Assembly (NCBI GenBank): GCA_964572065.1
Contig: CAZNER010000030.1
Location: 1 to 16,895, forward strand
DNA from: an uncultured Candidatus Saccharibacteria bacterium
GTDB lineage: Bacteria > Patescibacteriota > Dojkabacteria > JAHIVN01
DNA: 16,895 nt
Direction: 5' to 3'
In this document: positions 332 through 16,895 of the stretch, in pieces
Numbering within the stretch: position 1 is the first letter of the stretch
Layout of the letters: each line of letters begins with the position of its first letter
The notes under the pieces: model-generated
The model's database searches: none
What the model was told of the DNA's origin: nothing
What the model saw: the letters and a program-made list of their open reading frames with translations, nothing else
Program-made: the position numbers and the translations under genes

Positions 332-694
332 ATGGAAGAAGACCTGTGCTTAAAAACTGAGCAAGCAAATAACAGATTCATTTTTGATGGTTATGTCTAT
401 CTATATAGAGAATATGGTGAAATGGAAGTTGGTTGTTATGGAGTGAAAGTTGAAAATGAAGATTCAATTGTTTTAGTTAGTTTGGTTAGGTATAATCGTT
501 ATTTAACTGGAGAAAGCTTAACACCAGCAGAAATGCATCAATTTAGAAATGATATTTATGGTTGTGATGTAATTCTTGGATCTTGGACTAATGCATGCTT
601 TCCAAATTGTGTAAACAAACCTTTATATATTCCACATTACAGTCGATTAGGAATAGAGTTAAATAGAATTGTTGAAAGAAAAACTGAAAAATAA
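332..694 (+). CDS. hypothetical small Cys-rich protein (120 aa), possibly a distant member of the small-protein family to its right
   Basis: ORF track entry with an ATG start, the SD-like GGTGA upstream and a TAA stop. No domain recognised. The DSIVLVSLVRYNRY strand motif and a C-terminal helix loosely echo the neighbouring ORFs. Confidence 0.6.
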   Translation: MEEDLCLKTEQANNRFIFDGYVYLYREYGEMEVGCYGVKVENEDSIVLVSLVRYNRYLTGESLTPAEMHQFRNDIYGCDVILGSWTNACFPNCVNKPLYIPHYSRLGIELNRIVERKTEK

Positions 695-800
695 TTATTC
701 TATAGTATTAATCTATCAATATAGGTTGATTATATATGTAATTCGTGATAAAAATAGATAAAGAAAATGTCCAAAATAATTTATTTTTAATAATTTAGAT

Positions 801-1235
801 ATGTCACAATTAGCAGGTCCTGATAATGGAGTACAAGGGAATGTAGAACACGAATATAATGGAGATTTCAGAAGTCAGTTGCAAGTGTTGAGTGAAATGA
901 GATGGCCAGGATTAGTTGCATTTGAAAATAGTAACCATGCAATTGTTGTGGTGAAAACAAATTATTGTGGCTATAATTCTTATAGCTTTTTAGTTATAAA
1001 ATTGATTGATAGTGGATGTGTTTTATTAACTAATACTGGACCAGTAGGAAGCTATATGGAAATAGGTATTCATGGAAGAATGTTTATAATGACTAGAACA
1101 GGTCTTGAGCCAGGTGTTGATATAGAGAATGTTGGAGAATTAGTTAGTGTTGAATGGGATGCTGTTGTTGGTGATATTTCAGAAGTTATAAGTTATTATA
1201 GAGAATTAATAAAAGGATTAAATTTAAAAAGTTGA
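801..1235 (+). CDS. hypothetical protein, small-protein family member A (144 aa)
   Basis: ORF track entry, ATG start, TGA stop. By-eye similarity to the 2280-2765 product: GLVA, I(V)VVK, DSG, IGI.G, GVD.E, and a C-terminal Y(Y)RE(L)I helix, all in the same order. Confidence 0.65.
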   Translation: MSQLAGPDNGVQGNVEHEYNGDFRSQLQVLSEMRWPGLVAFENSNHAIVVVKTNYCGYNSYSFLVIKLIDSGCVLLTNTGPVGSYMEIGIHGRMFIMTRTGLEPGVDIENVGELVSVEWDAVVGDISEVISYYRELIKGLNLKS

Positions 1236-1277
1236 TTTAGGAGTCAGTTATTAAATTATTACTTTAAAATTTATAAT

Positions 1278-1721
1278 ATGGCAGATTTAGATACAACAGA
1301 GGGGGAAACTGAAGTAAGTGGATTAGAAACCAGGAGAGAATGTATAGAAAGACATCTATCGAATCAACAAACTTGTGCTGTTGCTGTTTCTATTCAATAG
1401 TCTAATGGTTTGAGAATAGTATTTGCATATAGAAATGAGGATGGCGGATGGGTAGTTGCAGCTGGAAGTTGTGTGCCTCAGATAGAAGGGAATTTAATAT
1501 TTAACTTTACAGAAGTTGAAATCGAAGAGGTAGAACCTGATGTTCCAGTTGAATATGGAAAAGGGGGTAAAAGTATAAGTATTAGACTTTTAAATCGACG
1601 TTTTAGATTAAATTATATAGTTAGCGAAGTAGAACATATAGATGTAGTATCTCAGAGTGATGGCGGTCCAAATGTTTCCGAAATAGCTGATACTTTAATG
1701 CGTATTAATGAAATTGGTTAA
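1278..1721 (+). pseudogene. small-protein family member B, interrupted by an in-frame TAG at 1398-1400 (or split into 40-aa and 103-aa products)
   Basis: ATG 1278 opens MADLDTTEGETEVSGLETRRECIERHLSNQQTCAVAVSIQ and then hits TAG. The track ORF 1410-1721 has a TTG start and lies in the same frame (1278 and 1410 are both 0 mod 3). The 40-aa piece matches the N-terminus of the 2280 product (MTSPDTQQ.. / ..QIEALFVSQESGLVA versus MADLDTTE.. / ..CIERHLSNQQTCAVA). The downstream piece carries the RIVFAYRN strand and a C-terminal helix like members A and C. Joined length is 147 aa, against 144 and 161 aa. Confidence 0.5.
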
Positions 1722-1744
1722 ATCTAACATTTAATATTTAAAAA

Positions 1745-1879
1745 ATGATCGAATCAGAAAAGGGAAATCTAAGAGCGGAGATTATAGGAAAAATAGAAGG
1801 TAGAGTTGTTACTGTTCAAAATATGGAAGGTCGAGAGGTAATTGGAACTCAGATATTGCAAAGATTGGAAGAACATTAA
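1745..1879 (+). CDS. possible 44-aa ORF (MIESEKGNLRAEIIGKIEGRVVTVQNMEGREVIGTQILQRLEEH)
   Basis: ATG to TAA open frame found by hand, below the track cutoff. Composition is charged and not low-complexity. There is no other support. Confidence 0.2.
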   Translation: MIESEKGNLRAEIIGKIEGRVVTVQNMEGREVIGTQILQRLEEH

Positions 1880-1977
1880 TAATAATTGAATCAATATCTT
1901 TCTGTAAGATATGTCGTTGAACTTTTTTGTAAAAGTTTATAAGGCTAATAATGGAAGATATTTCTTAGTATAAAAAC

Positions 1978-2096
1978 AGGGTATTTTTTGATCTCAAAAA
2001 ATACCCTAAAAAAAGATTAGGGAAATGTTAATTGCTCTAGTGAACAAACGTCATTCAACAGTTCCACCGCAGTAACATTTCCCTAAAACCCTAAAA
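1978..2096. repeat. family H composite structured element, copy 1
   Basis: Hairpin a is agggtatttttt / gatctc / aaaaaataccct (1978-2007), a 12-bp perfect stem with a 6-nt loop. A 10-nt spacer follows. Hairpin b is tagggaaatgtta (2018-2030) paired with taacatttcccta (2073-2085), a 13-bp perfect stem closing a 42-nt loop. The 3' end is then reiterated as aaa-cccta-aaa (2086-2096). The same architecture occurs at 6521-6624. Confidence 0.6.
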
Positions 2097-2241
2097 TTTA
2101 TACTATCTTAAGTATAGAAGACTAAGAAGGGTAATTGTTCTAGAGAATAGATGGTTTGATGGGGGAATTAGCAGGTTTCATATATTATTTATTAGGATTG
2201 AAAAATGGAGTCATTACAGGATAGAGAGATATTATTAGTAA

Positions 2242-2270
2242 TTGACGGTTTTTGTGAATTAAAATATAAA
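2242..2270 (+). promoter_or_regulatory. sigma70-type promoter for the 2280 gene, near-leaderless geometry
   Basis: TTGACG (2242-2247), a 17-nt spacer, then TATAAA (2265-2270). Only 9 nt separate the -10 from ATG 2280 and there is no SD. Confidence 0.5.
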
Positions 2271-2279
2271 TAAAATCTT

Positions 2280-2765
2280 ATGACAAGTCCAGATACACAA
2301 CAAGTAGTTACAGGAGAACAAGAAGCAGTTGATGTTTCACCAAAGAGACAAATAGAAGCATTATTTGTTTCTCAAGAAAGCGGTTTAGTTGCACCTGAGA
2401 TAATTGTCAGTGAAGGTGTTAATGACTACACTATAATTGTTGTAAAACATATAGATGTTAATACAGGTGTAGTAAATTGGAAATTTATTTCAGTTTTTTT
2501 ATATAGTGAAGACAGTGGTTTTGCGGTAACTCTATATACAACAGGTACTTATAGTACAATAGGTATACGAGGTACTGATATAGTAACTAATCCGGAAGTA
2601 GGAAGACAATTGGTTTACAATGGTGTTGATCTAGAGACTGGTATGCAGTATGTAGGAAAAGTGATGAATGTTGTTATTGAAGATGTTTTGACATTAGATA
2701 AAGTTATTGAAGGATATAGAGAAATCAAAAGAAGAATAAAAAATGGAGAATTTGATAAGAATTGA
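2280..2765 (+). CDS. hypothetical protein, small-protein family member C (161 aa)
   Basis: ORF track entry, ATG start, TGA stop, own promoter. Similarity to members A and B as described for those features. No known domain recognised. Confidence 0.7.
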   Translation: MTSPDTQQVVTGEQEAVDVSPKRQIEALFVSQESGLVAPEIIVSEGVNDYTIIVVKHIDVNTGVVNWKFISVFLYSEDSGFAVTLYTTGTYSTIGIRGTDIVTNPEVGRQLVYNGVDLETGMQYVGKVMNVVIEDVLTLDKVIEGYREIKRRIKNGEFDKN

Positions 2766-2837
2766 ATCTTTTTAGGTAAAGAGTTTGTGATATAGATACA
2801 ATATTAATTCCCGTTTAGAACACAAGTTGTATTAATA

Positions 2838-2921
2838 TTCCATTGTCAGTAATGGAACCAACAAATAGCGTTATAGGCGGATCCGCCTTGACTCACAAGG
2901 CGAGGCAGGTAATGGAATCAG
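2838..2921. repeat. family E GC-rich structured element, copy 1
   Basis: About 48% GC (hand count 40/84). Hairpin ttccatt-gtcagt-aatggaa (2838-2857) is followed by ccaac..atagcgtt. The GC hairpin cgccttg-actca-caaggcg (2884-2902) competes with the palindrome ggcggatccgcc (2876-2887). Then comes aggcgaggcag. The direct repeat gtaatggaacca (2849-2860) / gtaatggaatca (2909-2920) is 11/12 identical. The same ordered blocks occur at 16192-16306. Confidence 0.6.
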
Positions 2922-2938
2922 TCTTTAAGTGCTAAATT

Positions 2939-2958
2939 ATGCGATCAGGAGATCGCAT
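2939..2958 (-). terminator. hairpin immediately after the tyrS stop (putative terminator)
   Basis: atgcgatc-agga-gatcgcat has an 8-bp stem and starts 1 nt after the TAG stop (2960-2962). On the minus strand only a weak AAUUUA tract follows. A near-identical hairpin is at 6733-6752 in the opposite orientation. Confidence 0.5.
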
Positions 2959-2959
2959 T

Positions 2960-4249
2960 CTACTTAATTCTAACAAATTTTCTTTTGCCAACTTTAACGA
3001 CATTCCCCTTCTCCAGTTTAATTTTTTGTTCGAAGTCTTTTACTTTTTTACCTTCTATCTCTATTCCTCCTTGTTTTATTAGCCGTTTTGCTTCAGCATT
3101 ACTTGCTATTATTCCTTTTTTAACAAGTTCTTTCACTAACTCAAGTGCTGTTAATTCCTTTTTACACTTGATTTCTTTCATTTCATCAGGAGTCTCTCCT
3201 TTTTGTACAGTTTTTTCAAAATGTTCTTGAGCTTTTCGAGATATTTCTTCATCATTGAGCATCTTAACAATTTCAAATGCGAGCTGTTTTTTTAACAGCA
3301 TTTGTTTTCCTGATTTAATGCCTTTTTTGACTGTATTTAAGTCAATGTTAGTTAGTAATTCAAAACTTTCTAAAAGTTTTTCATCTGTCCATGACATAAT
3401 TTTTCCATACATATCTTCAGGAGCATCGAGAGATGAGATTGCATTACCAGTTGTTTTTCCCATTTTTTCTCCCTTTGTGTCAGTTAGGAGTTTTAATGTT
3501 AGAACAAACTTGTTTTTATTAGTGAGTTCTCTTGAAAGAGTCCTTCCTGTCAACATATTAAAGGTTTGATCTGAGCCTCCGACTTCAAGATCAACCTGCA
3601 TTACAGTACTATCAAATCCCTGCATTAACGGATACATTGTTTCATGAAGTCTTATTGGTTTCTCCTCTTTTAGTCTTGTTCTGAACATATCGTGGGATAA
3701 TATATTTTGAAGTGTAATTTTTCCCATTATCTGCAGCCAATCTTCTAATGTTACTTTTGATAACCAATCATAATTATTTAGAATCGTAATAGGATTATCC
3801 TTCCAGTCGAAATTCAATATTTTTGATGCTGTTGATTTATAATCCTTAAAGTTGTTCCAAACTTGTTGTTTTGTGAGAGGTTCGCGTGTGTATTGTTTGT
3901 CCGGATCTCCTATCATAGCTGTAAATCCGCCAATAAGAAATATCACTTGGTGTCCAAGTTTTTGAAATTGTGCTAATTTTCTCATCCAGATGAAATGCCC
4001 AACATGAAGGAAGTTTGCTGTAGGATCAATTCCTGTATAAAGTTTAATCCTTTTTCCTGACAGAAGAAGTTTTTTTAGATCCTTTTGTTTAGGAAAAATA
4101 TCTTTAACTCCTCGGGTTAATGCTTCATCGATTTTGTCAGGATCTGTAACAACATCCATTTGAGGTTCTTTTATAGATACCTTGTCAATATATTTATTCC
4201 ATATTTTTATTTCATTTGCTTTTTTTGATTTATTATTTTTCTTTTTCAT
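2960..4249 (-). CDS. tyrS: tyrosine--tRNA ligase
   Basis: Class I signatures are present: HIGH-type motif (LHVGH), KMSKS-type motif (KMGKT), a GIDPTA..LHVGH context and a C-terminal S4-like domain (..AEAKRLIKQGGIEIEGKKV). The N-terminus has a Lys-rich extension of about 30 aa. ATG at 4159 (MDVVTDP..) is an alternative start. Confidence 0.95.
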   Translation of the reverse strand: MKKKNNKSKKANEIKIWNKYIDKVSIKEPQMDVVTDPDKIDEALTRGVKDIFPKQKDLKKLLLSGKRIKLYTGIDPTANFLHVGHFIWMRKLAQFQKLGHQVIFLIGGFTAMIGDPDKQYTREPLTKQQVWNNFKDYKSTASKILNFDWKDNPITILNNYDWLSKVTLEDWLQIMGKITLQNILSHDMFRTRLKEEKPIRLHETMYPLMQGFDSTVMQVDLEVGGSDQTFNMLTGRTLSRELTNKNKFVLTLKLLTDTKGEKMGKTTGNAISSLDAPEDMYGKIMSWTDEKLLESFELLTNIDLNTVKKGIKSGKQMLLKKQLAFEIVKMLNDEEISRKAQEHFEKTVQKGETPDEMKEIKCKKELTALELVKELVKKGIIASNAEAKRLIKQGGIEIEGKKVKDFEQKIKLEKGNVVKVGKRKFVRIK

Positions 4250-4380
4250 TTTAATTATTAATAATATTATTTAAGATAAATATACAATCAATACGATATA
4301 ATCTCAATAGAAATACTGAAAATTATATAAACTGTAAATTTTAGTTAATTGCTTATTTGACATAATATTTTTATTTATAG

Positions 4381-4615
4381 TAAATAATTAACCCTCATTT
4401 TTATACCAGTGTTTGATATAAAAACAAGGGTCAATTGAGATAATTCGTAATTCGCATTTTGGCGGTACCACCTTTGTTTATTATTATATTACTATAATAA
4501 CCTCATTTCCCATTAAGTTGGAAATTCTTATTTAAATATTTAAATGTATTTCATCTTTTTGTAAACTCTCAGTCTGTGTTTACTTTCTGTATATTTAAGG
4601 ATTACTTAAAACTAT
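4381..4615 (-). promoter_or_regulatory. T-box riboswitch leader (tyrosine specifier) of tyrS
   Basis: The minus strand reads AAACAAAGGUGGUACCGCCAAAA (plus-strand ggcggtaccacc at 4461-4472), matching the conserved T-box core GGUGGUACCGC. The variable base in UGGU predicts discriminator A, as in tRNA-Tyr. UAC followed by A (plus-strand gta at 4546-4548) sits on the 3' side of a stem-I-like structure whose upper hairpin is gtaaac..gagag..gtttac (4561-4583). A terminator follows and the leader lies directly upstream of an aaRS gene. Confidence 0.75.
4392..4430 (-). terminator. T-box leader intrinsic terminator
   Basis: The minus strand reads cccttgtttttata-tcaaacactgg-tataaaaatgaggg, 14 bp including 2 G-U pairs, followed by UUAAUUAUUU. 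Its 5' arm can instead pair with AAACAAAGG just upstream of the T-box (8 of 9 pairs), as expected for an antiterminator switch. Confidence 0.6.
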
Positions 4616-4620
4616 AATTA

Positions 4621-4650
4621 ATTATAGCAGTTTTAATTTTTAATTTGCAA
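4621..4650 (-). promoter_or_regulatory. sigma70-type promoter of the tyrS T-box leader
   Basis: On the minus strand: TTGCAA (4645-4650), an 18-nt spacer, then TATAAT (4621-4626). Confidence 0.55.
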
Positions 4651-4673
4651 ATTGATTATATTTCAGGCAAAAT
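4645..4673 (+). promoter_or_regulatory. possible permease promoter sharing the palindromic TTGCAA -35
   Basis: On the plus strand: TTGCAA (4645-4650, its own reverse complement), a 17-nt spacer, then the weak -10 CAAAAT (4668-4673), then 9 nt to ATG 4683. The -10 is weak, so this is low confidence. Confidence 0.3.
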
Positions 4674-4682
4674 AATTAGATA

Positions 4683-5780
4683 ATGAACAAGAAGTTAAAA
4701 GCTGTTTTCACAATGGTAGCCGGTACCATTGGAGTTGGTTTTTTAGCTCTGCCCTATTCTATCTATAAATTTGGCACCTTTTGGGGAATAGGCTGTTTGG
4801 TGTTAGTAAGTTTATTGACTTTAGTAGGTAATCTTGCCTATAGTTCAATTGTATTAAAAGATAAAGGAAATAAACAGCTCCCAGGGTATACTAATAAATA
4901 TCTTAATTATTCTCTGTCTCATATAGTAACTTTTATTGTAATAATTGGATCTTTTGGTATCCTTCTTGCTTACAGTATTTTAGCTGGAGAGTCATTAAGA
5001 TTTTTAGTTGGTAATTTTAATATAAATCTAAGTGCTAGTTTTTTAGGATTGCTGTTTGTCATGATTTCTATTTTTGTAATGAAGTACGGGATGAAAGTTA
5101 TTTCAAGGATTTCGACTCTGGCTATTGTGATTATTATTTCATCTATTATATTATTAGTTGCTATTTCAATTCCTGAGATAAGTTCAGATAATATATCTTC
5201 ACTAAATTGGAATTATTTTTCATTAATTTTTGGAGTTTCAATTTTTGCGATGTTTTCAGTTACAACTGTGCCGGTTATTGATGAGATAATTGGTTATAAT
5301 AAGAAAGATTACAATGTAGTAGTATCTGTTTCCACAATAATAACTGCTTTTATATATATAATTTTTGGTCTTGTTCTAACTTTAGCATTTGGAGATAATT
5401 TAACTAGTACTTTGATAGATTCATTTGGTGCTAAGTATATTTTCCTATCAAATATTCTTTCTGTTTTAACGTTATTTGCTATATTTACCTCATTTATTTT
5501 AATAGCAAATAATATTAAAGAGATTTTAAATTATGATTATAAGTTATCTCCTAAAGTATCGGTGTTGGTGATTACTACGATATTAATATGGCTGATGGTT
5601 TTTAGTTTCCTTGATTTTGAGACATTGCTTTCTTTAGTAGGTAATTTTTCAATGGTATTGCAGTATATTATAATTTTCTGCATTTGGTTTATAATTAAAA
5701 AGGAGGCTAGTTGGATATATAAAGTTATTGTTATCATATCTGCTATAGCTTTATCTTTTGGTATATTTATTCAAATTTAA
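4683..5780 (+). CDS. amino acid permease, Trp/Tyr-permease-like (Aa_trans/HAAAP-type), possible tyrosine transporter
   Basis: 365 aa and polytopic, with about 10-11 hydrophobic segments. The N-terminal motif VAGTIGVGFLALP resembles the VAGT.IG.G.LA.P motif of TyrP/Mtr/TnaB-type carriers. Divergent from tyrS. Substrate assignment is inference. Confidence 0.7.
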   Translation: MNKKLKAVFTMVAGTIGVGFLALPYSIYKFGTFWGIGCLVLVSLLTLVGNLAYSSIVLKDKGNKQLPGYTNKYLNYSLSHIVTFIVIIGSFGILLAYSILAGESLRFLVGNFNINLSASFLGLLFVMISIFVMKYGMKVISRISTLAIVIIISSIILLVAISIPEISSDNISSLNWNYFSLIFGVSIFAMFSVTTVPVIDEIIGYNKKDYNVVVSVSTIITAFIYIIFGLVLTLAFGDNLTSTLIDSFGAKYIFLSNILSVLTLFAIFTSFILIANNIKEILNYDYKLSPKVSVLVITTILIWLMVFSFLDFETLLSLVGNFSMVLQYIIIFCIWFIIKKEASWIYKVIVIISAIALSFGIFIQI

Positions 5781-6520: not shown

Positions 6521-6624
6521 GTACTTTTGGCCGCAAAAGTACCAAAACTCGTGGGGTTGATTAAGTCCCACAGTAAACAATCTAATTGCCGTGAACATCC
6601 GGACGTAATCAACCCCACACCCCG
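6521..6624. repeat. family H composite structured element, copy 2
   Basis: Hairpin a is gtactttt / ggccgc / aaaagtac (6521-6542), 8 bp with a 6-nt loop. An 8-nt spacer follows. Hairpin b is gtggggttgatta (6551-6563) paired with taatcaaccccac (6606-6618), a 13-bp perfect stem closing a 42-nt loop, extendable by gtcc/ggac. The C-tract is then reiterated as a-cccc-g (6619-6624). Loop positions 9-19 read agtaaacaatc here and agtgaacaaac in copy 1, 9/11 identical in the same register. Confidence 0.6.
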
Positions 6625-6732
6625 ATGATATAACAATTATCAATCAGATTTTTTAACAAGAAAATATATAAAATATCCCGAACTATAATAATTTATTAGA
6701 CATTTTTTATAAACAAAAAGAGGAAGATAAAA

Positions 6733-6752
6733 AGGAATTAGAATGCGATTTC
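6733..6752 (+). terminator. hairpin, near-identical inverted copy of the tyrS terminator hairpin
   Basis: atgcgatt-tcct-gatcgcat is 8 bp including one U-G pair, followed by AAAAUAGUAUUU. The 29-nt string tagaatgcgatttcctgatcgcataaaat (6729-6757) matches the minus strand at 2962-2934 with 3 mismatches. Confidence 0.45.
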
Positions 6753-6779
6753 CTGATCGCATAAAATAGTATTTAAGTA

Positions 6780-6801
6780 ATGCGGTCTGAGACCGTATTT
6801 T
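6780..6801 (+). terminator. intrinsic terminator-like hairpin
   Basis: atgcggtc-tga-gaccgtat is 8 bp including one G-U pair, and is followed directly by UUU (A). Confidence 0.5.
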
Positions 6802-6818
6802 ACAGTGGTTTTATAAAG

Positions 6819-6847
6819 TTCACATCTTTCTCACTTTGTATTAAAAT
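6819..6847 (+). promoter_or_regulatory. sigma70-type promoter for the hydrolase gene
   Basis: TTCACA (6819-6824), a 17-nt spacer, TAAAAT (6842-6847), then 23 nt to ATG 6871. Confidence 0.45.
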
Positions 6848-6870
6848 GTGATTTTATATTAGTATTAGAT

Positions 6871-7695
6871 ATGAAAAAAGTAATTTTAGATAAAGCTAAA
6901 ATAGGTTATATTCATAAAGGTAAAAAGGGAAAACCTAAAATTTTGATGCTTCATGGTCTTTTTTCAAATTGCAGGTATTTTGATGAGACAATTAGTTTTA
7001 TTAAGAATGATTTTGAGATTATAGCCCCTGATTTTCCAGGTTTTGGCTTGTCTGATAAGTTGAAAACTGTATCTCATACTCTAGAATCCTATTCAGAATC
7101 AATAATACAATTATGTGATCACCTAGATTTTAAACCTTTTAATTTAATTGGAGCTTCACTTGGAGGTATGGTTGGGATAAAACTTGCTAGTGATTATGAT
7201 GAATATATTAGTAAAGTAATAATTCAAGCTGCCCCTTGGAATAAATCATGTATAAATATGAGAATTATTGAAAAAACTTTTGATTTTGCATCAAGAATGG
7301 AAAAATTGGTTAATGTAGTAGATGGTTTAAAAAATAGAATAAAAAAAGAAACTCTTACAAAAACCTTGAAGATGTTTAATAAGCATTATTATTCAATTGA
7401 AGAAAGAAACGGCTGTATATCATATAGTTTTAAAAGAATGAATCTCAAAGCTACATCACAGATTTGGAATAATTTAAAAGATGCCGAACTTTCTGAAAAA
7501 GCTAAAAGGATAGAAAAGAAGACTTTAGTTATTGCAGGAGATCATGATGAAATTGTGTTTCCTGAAAAGACGAAGATGTTAGCTGAATTTATAAAAGATT
7601 CAGAGTTCAGATTAATCAAAGGAATTGATTGTACACATGCATTATTTTTTGATCATCCAGACAAAATGGCTAGGCTGATTAAAAGTTTCTTTTAG
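6871..7695 (+). CDS. alpha/beta-fold hydrolase
   Basis: 274 aa with an HG oxyanion motif (MLHGLFSN), the nucleophile elbow GASLGG (G.S.G), an acid in AGDHDEIV and a His in CTHALFFDHP. This is a complete Ser-Asp-His triad pattern. Substrate unknown. Confidence 0.85.
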   Translation: MKKVILDKAKIGYIHKGKKGKPKILMLHGLFSNCRYFDETISFIKNDFEIIAPDFPGFGLSDKLKTVSHTLESYSESIIQLCDHLDFKPFNLIGASLGGMVGIKLASDYDEYISKVIIQAAPWNKSCINMRIIEKTFDFASRMEKLVNVVDGLKNRIKKETLTKTLKMFNKHYYSIEERNGCISYSFKRMNLKATSQIWNNLKDAELSEKAKRIEKKTLVIAGDHDEIVFPEKTKMLAEFIKDSEFRLIKGIDCTHALFFDHPDKMARLIKSFF

Positions 7696-8162
7696 TAATC
7701 AATTTTGTCTGATTTGTTTTTCCAAATTTTGAAAAGTTCTAGACATTCCTTATGGCAGAAATCTGGAATTGTTTTAAGTTTACGTTCCTCTTGGGCTTTT
7801 TTAAATTCATCATAGATGAATTGGTCATCAAAATCTATTTCAGCTGCTTCATATCTTGTACAACCATAGTATAATTTATCAATTCTAGCCCAATAAATTG
7901 CTGCAAGGCACATAGGACATGGTTCACAGGTAGAATAAATTTCGCAGCCGTCTAATTTAAAAGAATTGAGCTTTTTACAAGCCTTTCTTATAGCATTTAT
8001 CTCAGCATGAGCCGTAGGATCATTATCTTTTACTACAGTATTATTACCAAATGAAATTAATTTATCATTTTTAACAATGCAGGCTCCAAATGGTCCCTCT
8101 CCTACATTCTGTAGTCCTTTTTTGGCTTTCTTTATAGCTTGAAACATATATTTTTTATCCAT
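7692..8162 (-). CDS. guaD: guanine deaminase (CDA-fold, GuaD type)
   Basis: 156 aa with the zinc motifs HAE and PCPMC. The GPFGA.IVK, NDPTAHAE..AIRKACK, Y.(S/T)CEPCPMC..AIYWAR and FDD.FIY.E blocks match my recollection of Bacillus subtilis GuaD, which is also 156 aa. A TadA-like tRNA deaminase is less likely because of the FDD.FIY tail. Confidence 0.8.
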   Translation of the reverse strand: MDKKYMFQAIKKAKKGLQNVGEGPFGACIVKNDKLISFGNNTVVKDNDPTAHAEINAIRKACKKLNSFKLDGCEIYSTCEPCPMCLAAIYWARIDKLYYGCTRYEAAEIDFDDQFIYDEFKKAQEERKLKTIPDFCHKECLELFKIWKNKSDKIDY

Positions 8163-8179
8163 AATTATTTATTAAAATT

Positions 8180-10297
8180 TTAAAATCTTTTTTTATGCAT
8201 TATCCAAACTCCATTCCAGTTCTTTGTCTTTGTAATATTTGAATTTTCCAGTCTGTTTAAGAAAACTTTTACTGCAGGGTCCTTTTTTTCAAGTTTTCTG
8301 AAATCTTTTTCTGCTTGAGTCCATTTTCCATTTCTGTATTTTTTTAATGCATTTTCAAATTTATTGATATCATTAATTCTAACTTCACAGGTTTTGTATT
8401 GTCCAATGAGTTCATATATTTTTACTGGTGTCTTTCTTCCTTTTACTTGGACAGTATCCAATTCTCTAAAAACCAAGTTTTTCTTTCTGGGATTTTTAGG
8501 ATTGTATATTTTATTGTTAAATTTGAGTTGTTTATAAGTTGAATCTGAAATAATAATCGGAACTTTATATAATTTTGTAAGTTCTTCAAGCCTGCTGCCA
8601 AGATTTACACTATCGCCTAATACAGTATAGCTGAATTTTTCTTCAGATCCAATATTTCCGACTACCATTGATCCTGTATTAATTCCTATTCCCATATTGA
8701 AACTCTTTTTGTTTATCGTTTCTTCCTTTTTCCACTTGTTTAATTCTTTCATCATATTAATTGCAGTAATGCATGCATTATAAGCATGGTCTTTATCCTT
8801 AATTGGTGCTCCCCAAAATGCCATAATTTCATCTCCAATAAATTTATCAATATAGCCGTCATTGTCAAGAATTACATTTGACATGCTATTAAGGTATTTA
8901 TTAGTAAGATTAACCAATTTCTTAGCGGACATTTTTTCTGCTAATGAGGTGAATTTCCTAATATCTGAAAACAATACAGTCATTACTTTTGTTTCTCCGC
9001 CTAAGGAAAGTTTATCCTGGTCTTTAATGATTTCGTTTAGTACTTTTCTAGAAACATAGTGTTCAAATGCACCTCTAATATATAATTCTGATTGGGTATT
9101 GATATAGAAATTTATAACTAACTGGGTAATCCAAGCAGTGATACCTGCAAGAGGAAGATAAATTATATCCATTATCATTCCATTTGAGAACTGCCATATA
9201 GCAAATAGGATGTAAATATTAATAACTCCAAAGGTTATTATAGAACCAAATAGTGATTTCTGGAATCTCATTATAAAAACTATAATTGCTGAAACTATAA
9301 ATATGCCTAATATAACGTATTCGGGATCTTCACGATAAATAAAATTGCCGTTTTTTAATGTATATAAAGCGTTTGCCATTATTTCAGCTGAAGACATAAA
9401 TGATGAGCTTGTTGGCGTCAATTTATAATCCTGTGCTGTTTTTGCTGTTACACCTACGATAACGAGCTTGTCTTTCAGCGACTCAGGTATGACATCATAT
9501 TCTAAAAAATCTGCAACAGAAATTGTTTGAATTGTTCCAGGCGGACCTGCATAATTAATTATTAAATCATTTCCATTCTCTAATGGAATACCCGATGTAC
9601 CTGTTTCGCAGGGGTTTTTATATGACCTGCCTAGATATTTTTCATACATAACAAGAGGAAAACTTTTTCTGCAGCTGTCATCTCTATCATATTCATATAA
9701 TGGAGTTGATCTTATTTTTCCGTCTTTATCACTTCTTAGGTTTACAAAACCAAGTGTTGTGTTCTCGCTTTGCAGTTCTTCAGTTGGTTCAACATATCCT
9801 GACTGCCAGCTTGGATTTATAGCTGATGATAATATAACTGGTACGTCAGAATTAAATGATTCTGCTAAGGCTTGATCTTTGTCTGAGGGTTCGAAATAGG
9901 TGATGTTCCATCCAACTATTTTTACATTGAAATAGTTTAATTTTTCCTGTATTTTTGCCTGAATGTCCCTGTCCCATGGCCACCTGCCGTACTCTTGGAG
10001 GCTCTTGTCGTCTATTGCTATGATTAAAATTTCTGGATCACTTGTGTTTTTGTATAAAAGAGTGTCTGCAATAGAATCCTGAAGCCTGTCAAGCAAGTCG
10101 TAGTTGAAGAAAACAAGTATGATTAAGAAGACTATAACTGCAGTTAATACCTGCATAAACATAGGACCAAGTTTGCTGATTTTTTGTAGTAATCCTTGAT
10201 TTTTTTTTGCTTTAACAGGTCTTTTTTTGGGCTGTTTTTTTATAAAACTTAAAATATTCTTTTTCACATTGTGTATATTATAATGCAATTCTAACAA
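8180..10297 (-). CDS. CHASE2 sensor domain class III adenylate cyclase
   Basis: Domain order: Lys-rich N-terminus, one TM segment, an extracytoplasmic region of about 280 aa typical of CHASE2, three TM segments, then the cyclase homology domain. Catalytic residues are present: metal-binding Asp in LFSDIRKFT and IGDE, substrate Lys in IDKFIGD paired with Thr in SYTVLGDSVN (adenylate-type), and the Asn/Arg pair in VNLGSRLE. The C-terminal helical tail ends WNGVW. The track start is TTG at 10297. GTG at 10267 or ATG at 10162 are alternatives. Confidence 0.88.
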   Translation of the reverse strand: MLELHYNIHNVKKNILSFIKKQPKKRPVKAKKNQGLLQKISKLGPMFMQVLTAVIVFLIILVFFNYDLLDRLQDSIADTLLYKNTSDPEILIIAIDDKSLQEYGRWPWDRDIQAKIQEKLNYFNVKIVGWNITYFEPSDKDQALAESFNSDVPVILSSAINPSWQSGYVEPTEELQSENTTLGFVNLRSDKDGKIRSTPLYEYDRDDSCRKSFPLVMYEKYLGRSYKNPCETGTSGIPLENGNDLIINYAGPPGTIQTISVADFLEYDVIPESLKDKLVIVGVTAKTAQDYKLTPTSSSFMSSAEIMANALYTLKNGNFIYREDPEYVILGIFIVSAIIVFIMRFQKSLFGSIITFGVINIYILFAIWQFSNGMIMDIIYLPLAGITAWITQLVINFYINTQSELYIRGAFEHYVSRKVLNEIIKDQDKLSLGGETKVMTVLFSDIRKFTSLAEKMSAKKLVNLTNKYLNSMSNVILDNDGYIDKFIGDEIMAFWGAPIKDKDHAYNACITAINMMKELNKWKKEETINKKSFNMGIGINTGSMVVGNIGSEEKFSYTVLGDSVNLGSRLEELTKLYKVPIIISDSTYKQLKFNNKIYNPKNPRKKNLVFRELDTVQVKGRKTPVKIYELIGQYKTCEVRINDINKFENALKKYRNGKWTQAEKDFRKLEKKDPAVKVFLNRLENSNITKTKNWNGVWIMHKKRF

Positions 10298-13800: not shown

Positions 13801-16074
13801 CAATATTACTGGTGTTGTTAGATAGTTTGTAGTAAGAGGATAATTATCCTGAGCGTAAGGTGCAGTCATAGTAAAGTTGTCTATCTGGTATTGAAGTTGA
13901 GTGTCTCCTACTCCATCACCATCTAAGTCTATTCCTGTGTAATCATCCCAACTATTTCCTTCGGATCCATCATCCCAAACTGATTCTGATCTATCGTCAA
14001 TAGCATTTCTATCATTATCATAGAAACTATTATGATGTGCAGTAATTGGTGAACTGTAGTAAGCAGGAGGATAATGAAGATTCCATAAACCGACTTCATT
14101 ATCAAATATATTGTTGTTAGTAATAGCCACATTTAATCCGATTTCAAAGGATAATACTCCTACTGCAGAATTAGAATCTGGTATAAAGAAATTATTGCTT
14201 ATATAGTTTCCAGTAATTTGACAATTCTGGATATCTGATATTTGTATTCCATTTTGAGATATTAGATCGGTTGGACCAATTCCTGTTATAGTATTACCTG
14301 CTATAATAGAGTTGATAGAATCACTTAAAGTTACGCCATTTTTTTGATAGTTATTTATTTGACAGCTTAAAAGATTGACATTATATGTTATTCCATCATT
14401 TGCTCCGCTATAAAAAGCTGCCCCATGGCGTTCACTGCTAGTTGGCGTGTCTTTTATATTTATTATTCCGCAGTTTTGGACTGTTCCTCCAGCATTTCTA
14501 TAAGCAATTCCATAGAAGCGGTTATTTGCGTTTCCTTTTCCAGCACCATTAATAGTAAAATCCTCAATAATAACATTGTTTGCATTATTTACATAAACAA
14601 TTGGATAATTTGAGTAAGTGGTTCCACTAATTAAAGATGTCCATTTACTAACTAAATTGTCTGGGCTTGTTACTGTTGTAGAAGCGGTTCCAGCACCTGA
14701 TAGTGTTAGGTTCTTTTGTATATCCAGTTGTTCTTCATAATTTCCTTCTGCAACATAAACAGTTCCATCTTCTAAAACAGCATCTATCCCTTCCTGTATA
14801 GTTGCGAAGCCGTTGTAACCAAAATATCTTCCTGAACCTAAATCATCTCCATTACTATATCCTATCCAATCATCATCTACCCAAACTTCACTTGGAGACT
14901 CAGTTGACTGAATCATTACTGCATCAGCTGCAAGAAGACCGTCTGGATCTTCGTTGCTATTTTCAAGTATTACAAAATAAGTAGAGCCAGTTGCATAATT
15001 ATATGTTCCTAATTGATACCAGCCACCGCTGCCTGAAGTTTGATCTACCTGTATAGGTAAAATTGTACTTCCTCCTTGATAAGTAACAGTGTAATTAACG
15101 GGATTTCCATGAGAAGTATCTCCTGGCCACCGTGCATAAATTTCATATTCACCATTTTCAATTACACTAAATTGCCACTGAGCTCTTCTTCCTACTGTTG
15201 TATCTGATAAAAGATAATTCCCGTTATAACTTGATGCATTATCTGTTAAAGTCCATGTACCACCTGATGTAGTACATTCATCATCTTCATTATCTATAAT
15301 CATTTGCAGGTTTGAAACTGGAGGTGGTGATGGATTATCTACAACGACATAGGTAGTAAGATGATCTATTCCTGAAGCTTTTACGTAGTTACTTGTATTT
15401 TCTTCACCTGAAATATCGTTAAAGTTTGTATTGTCATTAGAATATTTAATTTCAAGTTCTTTGTTTGAATAATCGGCAGGTATAGGCATGTAAATAGTAA
15501 ATTCAAACTCGCCGTTTTGCATATCTGATGTTATGTCATAAGCATTACCGATTATATTTGCATTTCCTATTTTATCTCCGATATCGACTTTTTCGATATT
15601 TAATTTACTGCTTTCTGTTGGAAGTTTTGTAAATACTATTTTTAGATTGTCAAATTCATCTATAGTATATTCGAAATCTTGGACAATATTTTCATTTGTA
15701 TAATGTCTATTCCCATCTACTGACCAAACTGAAGGTTTTGCCGCTAAATTAGATTTTTCTTCATCATTAGAATTATCTTCCTCAGTTTCATTATTAATTT
15801 CATCATTTGTCTCGGAGTTTTCCTGTTCATCTTCGGTTTCTTGCTCTTCTTCATCATTATAGGGTGATGGAGTTGTATTTAATTCTTCTTGCTCATTTTC
15901 TACAGTTTCTTCTTCTTCAAATTCATCCTCATATAAGTCTGGTGAAGGTATAGTTTTGTCCTTTAATGCGAATATTGATAAAGGAAGTACTGCATTAAAA
16001 AGCAATAATATAATTACCGAAGTTGCTAATGTTTTTGATACAGAATTGGTTTTTTTCTGTGAAAGTGAAAACAT
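10864..16074 (-). CDS. giant cell-surface protein (about 1736 aa from ATG 16074)
   Basis: Domain order, minus strand, N to C (coordinates approximate):
- Signal/anchor: MFSLSQKKTNSVSKTLATSVIILLLFNAVLPLSIFA.
- Acidic low-complexity region, 15745-15955.
- Carbohydrate-binding-like beta-sandwich, 14905-15290 (W..W..Y.IYARWP...Y.V).
- Right-handed parallel beta-helix, PbH1/NosD-like repeats, 13990-14890 (NV.I..F.I.G.., N..I.GN.I).
- Ig/FN3-like modules, then two PKD domains, 11390-11935 (DYGDG...HTY...G.Y.V).
- SdrD-B/Cna-B-like domain, 11070-11275 (ISGYVF.D.N.N..D..E.G..N..V).
- C-terminal TM segment plus a KNKKSK tail.
The start is moved from the track's 16188 because a consensus promoter lies inside that extension. 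Confidence 0.9.
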   Translation of the reverse strand: MFSLSQKKTNSVSKTLATSVIILLLFNAVLPLSIFALKDKTIPSPDLYEDEFEEEETVENEQEELNTTPSPYNDEEEQETEDEQENSETNDEINNETEEDNSNDEEKSNLAAKPSVWSVDGNRHYTNENIVQDFEYTIDEFDNLKIVFTKLPTESSKLNIEKVDIGDKIGNANIIGNAYDITSDMQNGEFEFTIYMPIPADYSNKELEIKYSNDNTNFNDISGEENTSNYVKASGIDHLTTYVVVDNPSPPPVSNLQMIIDNEDDECTTSGGTWTLTDNASSYNGNYLLSDTTVGRRAQWQFSVIENGEYEIYARWPGDTSHGNPVNYTVTYQGGSTILPIQVDQTSGSGGWYQLGTYNYATGSTYFVILENSNEDPDGLLAADAVMIQSTESPSEVWVDDDWIGYSNGDDLGSGRYFGYNGFATIQEGIDAVLEDGTVYVAEGNYEEQLDIQKNLTLSGAGTASTTVTSPDNLVSKWTSLISGTTYSNYPIVYVNNANNVIIEDFTINGAGKGNANNRFYGIAYRNAGGTVQNCGIINIKDTPTSSERHGAAFYSGANDGITYNVNLLSCQINNYQKNGVTLSDSINSIIAGNTITGIGPTDLISQNGIQISDIQNCQITGNYISNNFFIPDSNSAVGVLSFEIGLNVAITNNNIFDNEVGLWNLHYPPAYYSSPITAHHNSFYDNDRNAIDDRSESVWDDGSEGNSWDDYTGIDLDGDGVGDTQLQYQIDNFTMTAPYAQDNYPLTTNYLTTPVILAPPNTAFYPTSASEVDWTDSDGTFPSFEYQFEAYGDTAYSNLVWDSSGWITNSEISTLGIPDGMYYIRVRARDSEGNESYWSNGVSNTYVIVLDTNPPVTTLTSPADDTYWNTDIPIQGTTEDYSTLLYVDIYYRNTGTIDPWTLIETLTDSDGINNPFDWTYNWNPDLMPASNPPHEGSYDIRAIATDILGHIESDGHATNITYDITDPVPVITQPNNNEVVNGTINITGTITELHLDNYELSIHPVSDPSDITFIASGGNTNVSADFNTTILPDGEYVLNLEAVDRATNSAEDSINIIIDNTHPTVEITYPIQFYLSDIFTIRGTVEDDNPYSYELIIEDGIGNYVEGTGLILEPNSFNNQPIMSWDTTGINGLHTITLTAQDEAGNQNDDIITVIIDNIDPDANITNPHDGDTVGGTISINGNIIDDNFDEYTLTIYPNGDPGNIVETFNGISQSFTHEFNTLTYISQDPNFGDGVYTIELYALDLAGHEDTTTINITVDNTKPFIEPELEDSNYNEGDNIEVDITGKDDISLDQLCYQIVEIDGGVFTCLSGNGVEYTWTLELTTLYPQMLQNGVYQLEYYLLDSSTPANQSDSDPDTTGDQNYITTFTVNNVKPNVIPPTDQEIIEGQSTNKLTASFTDPSYIEGSGNDPDDAPWTVTIDYGDGTSIKTIAVMNEPGEFSIPSHTYIYNGIYTVTIKVAESEDGSNESGIAIFKVKVEDKQPTVSISAYPSNKVYAWVPITLTASVEGGNEPYTYEWSGICQGSNPQTTIKARPGIYTCTIKVTDVDGDKVTETMTLTFYPHIIDTADDQDETDESNDNDTDESENVLSIVDCGKKSKISGYVFIDDNKNNNKDEDEKGLNNIQIEVYFDESENGDRIASAKTNNEGYWETELCQGEYSLTINLEDLPDNAELEWGNYIFITVEENENINNINFPVIKYGSFLEQFNVLWCILPFVFILIVSIFLYFKNKKSK
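11960..13521 (-). repeat. five tandem Ig-like modules (about 96-112 aa each) inside the giant gene
   Basis: Module boundaries are marked by D-x-(T/I/N)-x-P linkers: DTNPP (about 13521), DITDP (about 13185), DNTHP (about 12897), DNIDP (about 12603), DNTKP (about 12294) and NNVKP (about 11960). Recurring internal motifs are I.G...D.N...Y.L and DG.Y.(L/I)...A.D.AGN. The copies are diverged at nucleotide level. Confidence 0.7.
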
Positions 16075-16113
16075 ATTTGTTAAAGCAAATATTTTAATGA
16101 GGCAGCTATAGAT

Positions 16114-16142
16114 ATTATATATTAGTATAGGATAAATATCAA
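16114..16142 (-). promoter_or_regulatory. sigma70-type promoter of the giant surface protein gene
   Basis: On the minus strand: TTGATA (16137-16142), a 17-nt spacer, TATAAT (16114-16119), then a 39-nt leader to ATG 16074. Confidence 0.6.
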
Positions 16143-16191
16143 TAAGAGATATGCACTTTAAATATATATTGATGGTATAGATTTGCATTAA

Positions 16192-16306
16192 GGCTCCATT
16201 ACGGATAATGGAGCCAACGACTACCTGCTATGATACGCATAGCGTTGCCTGCTAGCAACGATAACATAGCTTTTCGGGCTAGCAGGCGAGCAGATAATTG
16301 AGCCAG
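16192..16306. repeat. family E GC-rich structured element, copy 2
   Basis: About 50% GC (hand count 58/115). Hairpin ggctccatt-acggat-aatggagcc (16192-16215, 9 bp) is followed by an extra hairpin gctatg-atacg-catagc (16227-16243). The GC hairpin gcctgctagc / gctagcaggc (16247-16287) is 10 bp with a 21-nt loop. Then comes gagcag. The direct repeat ataatggagcca (16205-16216) / ataattgagcca (16294-16305) is 11/12 identical. Block order is the same as at 2838-2921. Confidence 0.6.
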
Positions 16307-16335
16307 CAAGTTTATCAGTTATTATTATTTTTATT

Positions 16336-16713
16336 CTAATCCGTAAATGGGGCTGGTGGAGGTGGAGATGAATTATCTGTACTATTATCTGAGTTATCTG
16401 ATGAATCTGAATTATAGTGGTCGTCTTCTAAGTAGTCTGAGTCATCAGATGTGCTGTCTGAATTTTGTGGAGAGCCATTAGAATATTCATTTGTCAAATC
16501 ATTATTATCTGTGGATTCTGGCAGTTTTTCTCCATTAGGTTCTTCGTAATTATCTTGAATAAATAAAACATTATCTTTTTCTTCTTGTTTTATGAAATTA
16601 CCGTTATTATAGGTTTTTTGAGGATTAATTATTAGTAAGAAGATCAAATTAACAAGAAGTAACAAGAGGATGATAATTATTGCTATGCGTTTATCTATTG
16701 ACAGATGATTCAT
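16336..16713 (-). CDS. small membrane-anchored protein with an acidic Ser/Asp/Asn-rich tail (about 125 aa)
   Basis: ATG at 16713 (MNHLSIDKR..) is preferred over the track's GTG at 16731, because a TTGACA-17-GATAAT promoter ends 10 nt upstream of that ATG. The TM anchor is IAIIIILLLLLVNLIFLLII. The tail is acidic and low-complexity, ending SSPPPPAPFTD. TAG stop. Confidence 0.7.
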   Translation of the reverse strand: MNHLSIDKRIAIIIILLLLLVNLIFLLIINPQKTYNNGNFIKQEEKDNVLFIQDNYEEPNGEKLPESTDNNDLTNEYSNGSPQNSDSTSDDSDYLEDDHYNSDSSDNSDNSTDNSSPPPPAPFTD

Positions 16714-16723
16714 AGTACACTGT

Positions 16724-16752
16724 ATTATCACATAGAAATGTTAATATGTCAA
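16724..16752 (-). promoter_or_regulatory. sigma70-type promoter (TG-extended -10), near-leaderless geometry
   Basis: On the minus strand: TTGACA (16747-16752), a 17-nt spacer, then GATAAT (16724-16729) preceded by TGT. Only 10 nt separate it from ATG 16713. Confidence 0.55.
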
Positions 16753-16895
16753 TGAAATAGACATGTATTGACTATATAATTTGAACAATATAGTTATATT
16801 ATTGCTGTATTAGTATTTAGTAATATGTTAATTTAGGAAAAAGTCCTATAATCTGGTTATTGAGCGTATCTATAGGTTTTTTGATTATAATAAAA

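Follow-up and report, generated by a model that had tools for sequence, protein, structure and literature searches.

The 16,895-nt window analysed here, contig CAZNER010000030.1 of an uncultured bacterium, carries at 16192-16306 a GC-rich intergenic element, referred to below as copy 2; a related element, copy 1, was located at about 2827-2921 by low-stringency BLAST within the window. The first-pass annotation had grouped the two as one family ("Family E") and proposed that they are either an autonomous small RNA (sRNA) or a mobile or recombinogenic DNA element. Our analysis favours the mobile half of that proposal: the element is probably a mosaic of repetitive extragenic palindromic (REP) sequences, similar to bacterial interspersed mosaic elements (BIMEs) and spread by a REP-associated tyrosine transposase (RAYT), rather than an RNA gene. 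This reading builds on a tagged, GC-rich palindrome, here named P1, which is dispersed outside genes in both orientations, occurs as singletons, tandems and doublets, maintains its stem through compensatory changes and, in relatives, adjoins a RAYT gene at the locus of copy 1. The parts of copy 2 are as follows.

16183..16191, plus strand: conserved flank TTGCATTAA (in copy 1, TTGTATTAA), from the two-copy alignment.
16192..16218 (stem-loop 16192-16215), no strand: P1, a REP-like hairpin with the tag AAC, GGCTCCATTA-CGGA-TAATGGAGCC, from sequence and fold.
16227..16243, no strand: extra hairpin gctatg-atacg-catagc, from sequence, fold and a gap in the anchored alignment.
16239..16246, plus strand: conserved block ATAGCGTT, an exact 8-mer also present in copy 1 at 2865-2872.
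16247..16287 (arms 16247-16256 and 16278-16287), no strand: GC hairpin gcctgctagc-(21 nt)-gctagcaggc with a 10-bp stem, from sequence and fold.
16285..16307, plus strand: conserved 3′ block GGCGAG-CAGATAATTGAGCCAGC, aligned with 2899-2921 of copy 1.

The GC content of the copy 2 region, taken over 80 nt at a time, is 0.49-0.53, compared with about 0.31 across the entire window; this bears out the value of about 50% given before, and three perfect hairpins can be read off the sequence within 16192-16287. P1 itself has a perfect 10-bp stem and a 4-nt loop, and reads on the minus strand as a GTTGG-hairpin with UUAAUGCAA, the minus-strand reading of the flank at 16183..16191, as an untagged 'tail' behind it; the hairpins of the closest relative (L019, see below) have TTATTGT where the window copies have TTGCATTAA or TTGTATTAA. 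The GTT(G) of ATAGCGTT forms a tag-like head immediately 5′ of the second large hairpin, and P1 and the GC hairpin at 16247..16287 thus make up a tags-inward (TT-type) heterodimer, while the block GGCGAG-CAGATAATTGAGCCAGC repeats the 3′ arm of P1 in direct orientation, as a half-REP with a CCAGC tag. As described earlier, the extra hairpin at 16227..16243 is missing from copy 1, sits in an 18-nt insertion and reuses the ATAGC block, and the GC stem is 10 bp long. Both strands of copy 2 fold well in comparison with shuffles (plus strand, −47.6 kcal/mol, z −5.3; minus strand, −50.2 kcal/mol, z −4.8), as is expected because the DNA is palindromic.

P1 behaves as a dispersed repeat. A scan of metagenome contigs for the exact pattern GCTCCAYT-N5-7-ARTGGAGCCAAC found 42 loci, about 31 of them on low-GC contigs (0.31-0.41 GC) that occur several per sample (10 in Ga0209587, 7 in Ga0180732 and 5 in Ga0075530) and have different flanking genes; the remaining loci, high in GC and with unrelated flanks, look like chance matches by their sequence context. 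Among the sites listed on low-GC loci, 29 out of 37 (window copy counted) lie outside open reading frames (ORFs) of at least 90 aa. They are found in both orientations relative to the neighbouring genes, most of them downstream of at least one gene, with a few in divergent promoter regions (L022, L049) and a few inside ORFs (L025, L028, L042, L055), and the genes beside the metagenome sites are mutually unrelated and include no transposase. Copy density reaches 5 in 13.5 kb (L026). When mismatches were allowed, P1 was found as singletons, in tandem (39-nt period, L019) and as inverted doublets. The doublets, present at ten loci, measure 76-136 nt end to end, point their GTTG tags outward, have a partly conserved spacer and fold up as a single long hairpin (−40 to −68 kcal/mol). 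The tag is GTTG(G) in 24 of the 30 distinct sequences, the others having GTTC, GTCC or ATTG. P1-type sequences were also observed in frame within long ORFs of low-complexity repeats (e.g. GSTQENGAN), at L028 1344-1369, L042 10149-10174, L055 279-304 and L025 4610-4635; these could be intragenic REP insertions or a repeat recruited into coding sequence.

The stem of P1 evolves by compensatory change. Across the 30 distinct sequences, 94% of the cells of the 10-bp stem are paired, a percentage that is inflated because sequences entered the set only if they matched a palindromic pattern and passed a filter requiring eight or more Watson-Crick pairs. The compensatory changes are not affected by this filter: five of the ten pairs changed on both sides, none of 500 shuffles reached the observed level of covariation, and one pair alone occurs as UA (10), GC (9), CG (4) and UG (4). 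The commonest variant is a C-A mismatch on the CCAAC strand, which is a G·T wobble on the GTTGG strand.

The connection with RAYT comes from the tyrosyl-tRNA synthetase (TyrRS) gene tyrS, next to which copy 1 lies. TyrRS homologues place the window in Candidatus Dojkabacteria, a group of the Candidate Phyla Radiation (CPR, or Patescibacteria), the closest named matches being about 70% identical, and the tyrS loci of six relatives (L019, L020, L021, L066, L067 and L068) were compared. In L020, whose TyrRS is 74% identical, tyrS is directly followed by a gene for a 171-aa protein, named RayT by JGI, which exceeds the curated cutoffs both of NCBIfam NF047646 'REP-associated tyrosine transposase' (94.8 bits; cutoff 80) and of Pfam PF01797 Y1_Tnp (29.1 bits; cutoff 23), and carries the HUH motif LNHLHLI and the catalytic tyrosine motif YIHDNP; by score, HUH motif and tyrosine motif alike, it is predicted to be a RAYT. 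Inverted hairpins with a GCTGGA tag and a stem different from that of P1 stand on both sides of this gene, and L020 also has canonical GTAG-tagged hairpins, GTAGAGACGCAAnnnnTTGCGTC, at 342-498 and 9677-9699, three of them in tandem (58-nt period) and one inverted 9 kb away. The closest relative, L019 (TyrRS 79% identical; Logan SRR32473236), has a contig that ends inside a RAYT homologue; the C-terminal fragment carries a YIHENP motif and matches NF047646 at E 1e-11 (44.9 bits, below the cutoff) and our own profile of 120 RAYT homologues at E 9e-18. Between the RAYT stop and the tyrS stop, L019 has a half-arm and two tandem P1 hairpins, 88-91% identical to the P1 of the window, which lie 58-100 nt after the stop of the RAYT fragment and start 16 nt past the tyrS stop. 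In L021 (TyrRS 70% identical), the same position is taken by a RAYT-like gene of 196 aa (57.7 bits, E 1e-15, below the cutoff), and the more distant tyrS loci L066, L067 and L068 have neither RAYT nor hairpins. Copy 1 occupies the exact site of the relatives' RAYT gene and hairpins.

Comparison of the window with L019 at this site shows that tyrS DNA is 78.5% identical and that the homology stops at the stop codon, and that the hairpins are 84-91% identical (E 2e-6 for the P1 of copy 2 and 0.005 for that of copy 1), i.e. as conserved as tyrS or more. A homologue search with the 88-aa RAYT fragment of L019 returned only the fragment itself and one 121-aa protein, encoded on a 633-nt contig without P1 hairpins. 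The 161-aa ORF beside copy 1 was considered as a RAYT and rejected in family and profile comparison. It is one of four small plus-strand ORFs in window 332-2765 (120, 144, 103 and 161 aa) without family match, and small unannotated ORFs also occupy the corresponding position beside the RAYT gene in L020 and L021.

The copies could also be read as relics of another miniature transposon, either a miniature inverted-repeat transposable element (MITE) with palindromic terminal repeats or a palindrome-associated element of the IS200/IS605 type, moved by a transposase other than RAYT. The inverted doublets with conserved spacers are MITE-like, and the repeated half-arm is readable as a duplication made by insertion. 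Nevertheless, no transposase except the RAYT homologues was found near any copy, hairpins that bear a non-pairing tag and stand alone or in tandem match REPs more closely than they do MITEs, and the window copies have no common terminal inverted repeats of their own, which makes such an origin very unlikely.

Whether the two window copies form one unit beyond P1 is a separate question, and it depends on the parts of copy 1 and its surroundings.

2827..2921, plus strand: copy 1 mosaic, with TTGTATTAA, P1 at 2838-2857, CCAAC at 2858-2862 and ATAGCGTT at 2865-2872.
2875-2888 or 2884-2902, plus strand: GC hairpin of copy 1, followed by a half-REP tail at 2906-2921, from sequence and hairpin census.
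2939..2958, no strand: adjoining hairpin of a second repeat family, ATGCGATC-AGGA-GATCGCAT, from an inverted repeat with 6736-6776 and hairpin census.

Copy 1 is bounded by the stop of the plus-strand ORF 2280..2765 (161 aa) and the stop of tyrS (2960..4249, minus strand). The order of blocks is common to both copies, namely TTGYATTAA, P1, CCAAC, ATAGCGTT, GC hairpin and GGCGAG(G)CAGnTAATnGAnnCAG, and in both the second hairpin is also headed by GTT(G/A), which yields a tags-inward dimer. The tail of each copy repeats the 3′ arm of its own P1, and this distal arm can form 9 of 10 pairs with the 5′ arm of its own P1 in copy 2 and 7 of 7 in copy 1. The GC hairpins take the same position in the two copies, with stems that have no sequence in common, and the fold of copy 1 is weak (z −1.4 on the plus strand and −2.7 on the minus strand). 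The earlier grouping of the two as one family, which was to be checked by computational alignment of the blocks, holds in part. On the one hand, a local alignment of copy 2 against the whole window does not rise above shuffles, 49 of 200 shuffles scoring as high; on the other hand, with the alignment fixed at P1, the rest of the two copies is more similar than shuffled sequence (p 0.005-0.016 in four scoring schemes), with the blocks in the same order. The homology of P1 in the two copies is secured by the third-party sequences of L019, and only the first module (P1 and CCAAC) is robustly common to both.

'Family E' might also not be a unit at all, but two independent P1 REPs that happen to stand beside unrelated GC-rich hairpins, the other blocks being coincidental. 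The non-significant unanchored alignment, the GC stems without common sequence and the shortness of the common blocks (8, 6 and about 14 nt), with a tail similarity that is partly the repeated P1 arm, speak for this possibility; the anchored shuffle test, the shared block order and the half-REP tail present in both copies speak against it, and we regard it as distinctly unlikely. In the REP/BIME-like reading, each copy would be a tags-inward heterodimer with a half-REP. With the hairpin at 2939..2958, which separates copy 1 from the tyrS stop, this intergenic region looks still more like a mosaic. Its family, AATGCGRTC-loop-GAYCGCATT, was observed in the window at 2939-2958, 6743-6764 and 6777-6801 and in L064, from the same genome, at 3056-3085, and 2925-2965 and 6736-6776 have 41 nt in common, flanks included, in inverted orientation (85%). 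These hairpins stand at gene ends and, as far as their sequence indicates, look like a unit that recurs in this genome and resembles a terminator or a REP.

P1 resembles the REPs of the GTAG superfamily, whose REP/RAYT systems are known as REPtrons (Nunvar et al. 2010, PMC2817692; Di Nocera et al. 2013, PMC3733652), in being a GC-rich imperfect palindrome of 20-40 nt with a short non-pairing tag at one end. Its stem of 10 bp and loop of 4-6 nt are within the published ranges of 5-13 bp and 2-20 nt (PMC2817692, PMC3733652). The forms described for REPs are singletons, outward- or inward-facing dimers, heterodimers and clusters, most of which lie downstream of genes, with occasional intragenic copies (PMC3733652, PMC2817692), and P1 is likewise dispersed in the loci examined here, mostly downstream of genes, as singletons, tandems and outward- and inward-facing dimers. 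The compensatory changes that preserve the palindrome are a further point of agreement. Hairpins also adjoin the RAYT gene of relatives, on both sides and with a stem other than that of P1 in L020, and as P1 on the one side within the contig in L019. REP/RAYT systems have been reported mainly from Proteobacteria, with some in Cyanobacteria, Chloroflexi and the Planctomycetes-Verrucomicrobia-Chlamydiae (PVC) group (PMC3733652). A Dojkabacteria genome falls outside the groups surveyed (PMC2817692, PMC3733652), and the genome of the window differs from REPtrons in the low copy number of the part examined and in having no RAYT there. As to REP doublets forming hairpins (REPINs; Bertels and Rainey 2011, PMC3116915), the inverted P1 doublets of the metagenomes, 76-136 nt long, likewise fold into one long hairpin. 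Inverted REP pairs that form one long hairpin were thus found in the ten metagenome doublets and not in the window copies, which pair P1 with a hairpin of unrelated stem, tags inward, and in which no single long hairpin can form. In Escherichia coli, BIMEs combine Y and Z REPs with further short motifs into mosaics. The window copies are similar to them as intergenic mosaics of differing palindromes and short conserved linkers, reaching from a gene end to the next promoter, with a further hairpin family directly adjoining copy 1, and dissimilar in that there are two mosaics only, that they are not known to bind IHF, gyrase or Pol I and that the motifs are unrelated in sequence. The copies therefore read as BIME-like mosaics rather than REPINs.

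Several observations weigh against a RAYT-spread mosaic, besides the selection behind the paired percentage given above. The P1 tag is GTTGG, not the GT(A/G)GG of published REPs, and being one base off places P1 as a variant outside the strict 'GTAG' class. The RAYT of L019 is incomplete: its contig breaks off within the gene, an in-frame stop lies upstream, and the other flank falls beyond the contig. There is no RAYT-like reading frame in the window or in the approximately 34 kb of this genome examined (the window plus 10 kb to the right, L064, and 7 kb to the left, L002), and only two copies of the element are found in these 34 kb, none of them in the extensions. The mosaic as a unit rests on two sequences only, at p of about 0.01. 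The modules beyond P1 recur nowhere among 185,579 species genomes, the fetched metagenome loci and viral contigs: the pattern ATAGCGTT-N15-45-GGCGAG-N0-1-CAGNTAAT gave 13 matches in the species genomes, in unrelated, mostly high-GC and coding-looking sequence, against a chance expectation that we estimate at about 17; none of the loci fetched from the P1 scan has ATAGCGTT or the GC stem 3′ of P1, or is a full-length copy; and viral contigs (IMG/VR) gave 0 matches to the P1 pattern and at least 120 chance matches to a 19-base core pattern, none with the architecture of the element. Finally, neither cluster names nor similarity to Dojkabacteria loci yielded a taxonomy for the P1 metagenome contigs.

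The surroundings of copy 2 bear on what the element may do at the RNA level. Two neighbouring features are relevant.

16336..16713, minus strand: acidic membrane-anchored gene, 125 aa (131 aa from a GTG at 16731), an ORF whose 125-aa form is recorded on four contigs.
16114..16142, minus strand: promoter-like TTGATA-17-TATAAT of the giant surface-protein gene, from the promoter scan, 11 of 12 positions.

In agreement with the earlier description, 30 nt separate the stop codon of the acidic gene (16336-16338) from the end of copy 2 at 16306, and copy 2 stands upstream of the giant-gene promoter (16142..16114), about 50 nt from its −35 box. The giant gene (1774 aa) has a recorded start, ATG at 16188, that is 4 nt from P1 and probably lies too far upstream, since the promoter-like sequence at 16142-16114 falls within that reading frame and a signal-peptide-like N-terminus (MFSLSQKKTNSVSKTLATSVIILLLF...) begins at ATG 16074. 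Both copies start 30-35 nt past the stop of a minus-strand gene (tyrS at 2960 and the acidic gene at 16336). It was argued earlier that their common orientation, despite differing strands of the flanking genes, speaks against a leader or terminator role; the orientation is indeed the same, but the argument is misleading and weaker than it was made to appear, and a minus-strand 3′ role is not excluded by orientation because both copies follow minus-strand genes.

The copies could accordingly be purely RNA-level structures at the 3′ ends of the tyrS and acidic-gene transcripts (a non-canonical terminator, 3′-end protector or insulator), P1 being a favoured terminator hairpin and not a transposase substrate. 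Like Rho-independent terminators, they place a GC-rich hairpin soon after a stop codon on the transcribed strand; besides the spacing of the two copies, the hairpins of L019 begin 16 nt past the tyrS stop, a U-containing tail (UUAAUGC or UUAUUGU) follows P1 on the minus strand, most P1 sites are downstream of at least one gene, and the commonest P1 variant is a G·U pair on the GTTGG strand. Unlike such terminators, they lack a U tract and have the same sequence at many loci in both orientations. A terminator scan of 15900-16895 and 2500-3200 returned no terminator-like site, the tails UUAAUGC and UUAAUAC having no U tract, which is in line with the earlier view that the minus-strand hairpin is at best a weak terminator. 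Ordinary terminators would not be expected to recur as near-identical hairpins at dozens of unrelated loci, to form inverted doublets with conserved spacers or to lie in divergent promoters (L022, L049) and in ORFs (L025, L028, L042, L055), and the adjacency of RAYT would be left unexplained. As a sole explanation we hold this to be fairly unlikely, and it overlaps the secondary role that the REP/BIME-like reading itself proposes.

The other half of the original proposal, an autonomous plus-strand sRNA or riboregulator, is not supported. In such an RNA the 5′ arm would pair with either the proximal (16206-16215) or the distal (16296-16304) 3′ arm and act as a switch. The plus strand of copy 2 folds well (z −5.3), the distal arm tracks the 5′ arm of its own P1 in each copy, and an extended −10-like motif, TG-n-TATAGA, can be read at 16173-16181 ahead of copy 2. 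Against it stand the promoter scans around both copies, which gave no convincing plus-strand promoter, and the terminator scan, which supported no terminator at either copy; the conserved upstream TTGYATTAA would be a poor −10 box, the plus strand of copy 1 folds no better than many shuffles (z −1.4), and palindromic DNA repeats fold equally well on both strands. No Rfam 15 family reached its gathering score anywhere in the window, and a search around the two copies that admitted E-values up to 10 returned only matches of E above 1; no full-length homologue was found in the species genomes, IMG/VR contigs or fetched P1 loci, and the part of the genome examined has only the two copies. An autonomous sRNA is thus highly improbable. 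A REP-derived variant of the same idea has in our view only a slight chance of being right: a co-opted REP hairpin would have a single 5′ arm for which two 3′ arms, both co-varying with it in the two copies, are alternative partners, and the arm in use would set, as a two-state switch, the extent to which transcription or mRNA decay carries over from the upstream gene to the giant-gene promoter region.

Further identities were considered and rejected: an integron attC site (no R''/R' consensus and no integron integrase nearby), a retron non-coding RNA (no reverse transcriptase), a CRISPR repeat (no array) and a transcription-factor operator (the arms covary, and the copies lie in convergent intergenic regions). 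ARAGORN found no tRNA or tmRNA.

The window sequence (JGI contig Ga0180431_10004767) is 100% identical in four other samples, including contigs of 62.9 kb (Ga0309772_1000565) and 189.9 kb (Ga0309772_1000063); since all contigs from the five samples are 100% identical over the window, they offer no population variation. According to the record coordinates, the 62.9-kb contig (sample 3300029258) ends at window 4500 and the 189.9-kb contig appears to end about there, which suggests an assembly break near this position; the region upstream of tyrS, 4250-4680, is extremely AT-rich (14% GC at 4201-4400). Elsewhere in the window, a GC-rich intergenic stretch at 6525-6635 has a long-range stem of 13-14 bp, GUGGGGUUGAUUA / UAAUCAACCCCAC, with minimum free energies of −34.3 kcal/mol (z −5.35) on the plus strand and −37.7 kcal/mol (z −3.2) on the minus strand and no Rfam match at E up to 5, and is a candidate structured RNA on the strength of its predicted fold. 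About 2-3.5 kb past the right end of the window, at L064 6589-8340, a tyrosine recombinase gene (6589-7404) lies beside a tRNA-Ser(UGA) (7734-7822, minus strand), after which three tandem repeats of about 125 nt each contain the 5′ part of the tRNA; by their arrangement, these repeats resemble a stack of integrative-element att sites. L064 also has a duplicated GC-rich segment of about 150 nt, at 4940-5100 and 7594-7740, in two intergenic regions 2.6 kb apart.

As for the origin of the REP/BIME-like mosaic, a RAYT (Y1/HUH tyrosine transposase) acting on the folded single strand would generate and spread the P1-type hairpins, as its family membership suggests. The RAYT gene kept beside tyrS in relatives would have been lost from that locus in this genome, and copies 1 and 2 may be decaying relics that consist of a full REP, a facing tag-bearing GC hairpin and a half-REP. 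Copy 2 would lie in the 3′ untranslated region of the acidic gene, where its stacked GC hairpins would be transcribed on the minus strand. REPs in enterobacteria protect mRNA and limit read-through. By analogy, the element probably has a second role on the minus strand, as an RNA hairpin at the 3′ end or an insulator, and the three stacked hairpins of copy 2 probably stabilise the acidic-gene mRNA at its 3′ end and reduce the transcription that runs on into the giant-gene promoter.

On this reading the element is a repeat of an ordinary kind, found in a lineage that has been little studied. The family is tied to a RAYT beside tyrS in several Dojkabacteria relatives, a gene that appears to have been lost from the locus in this genome, and the window would, if this is confirmed, offer a natural case of REP decay after the loss of RAYT at a locus. 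For annotation, GC-rich structured islands in the AT-rich intergenic regions of CPR genomes should be tested against REP-type repeats before they are called small RNAs. A family tagged with GTTGG and forming REPIN-like doublets would, if confirmed, carry this system of a domesticated transposase and its population of palindromes into the reduced genomes of the CPR.

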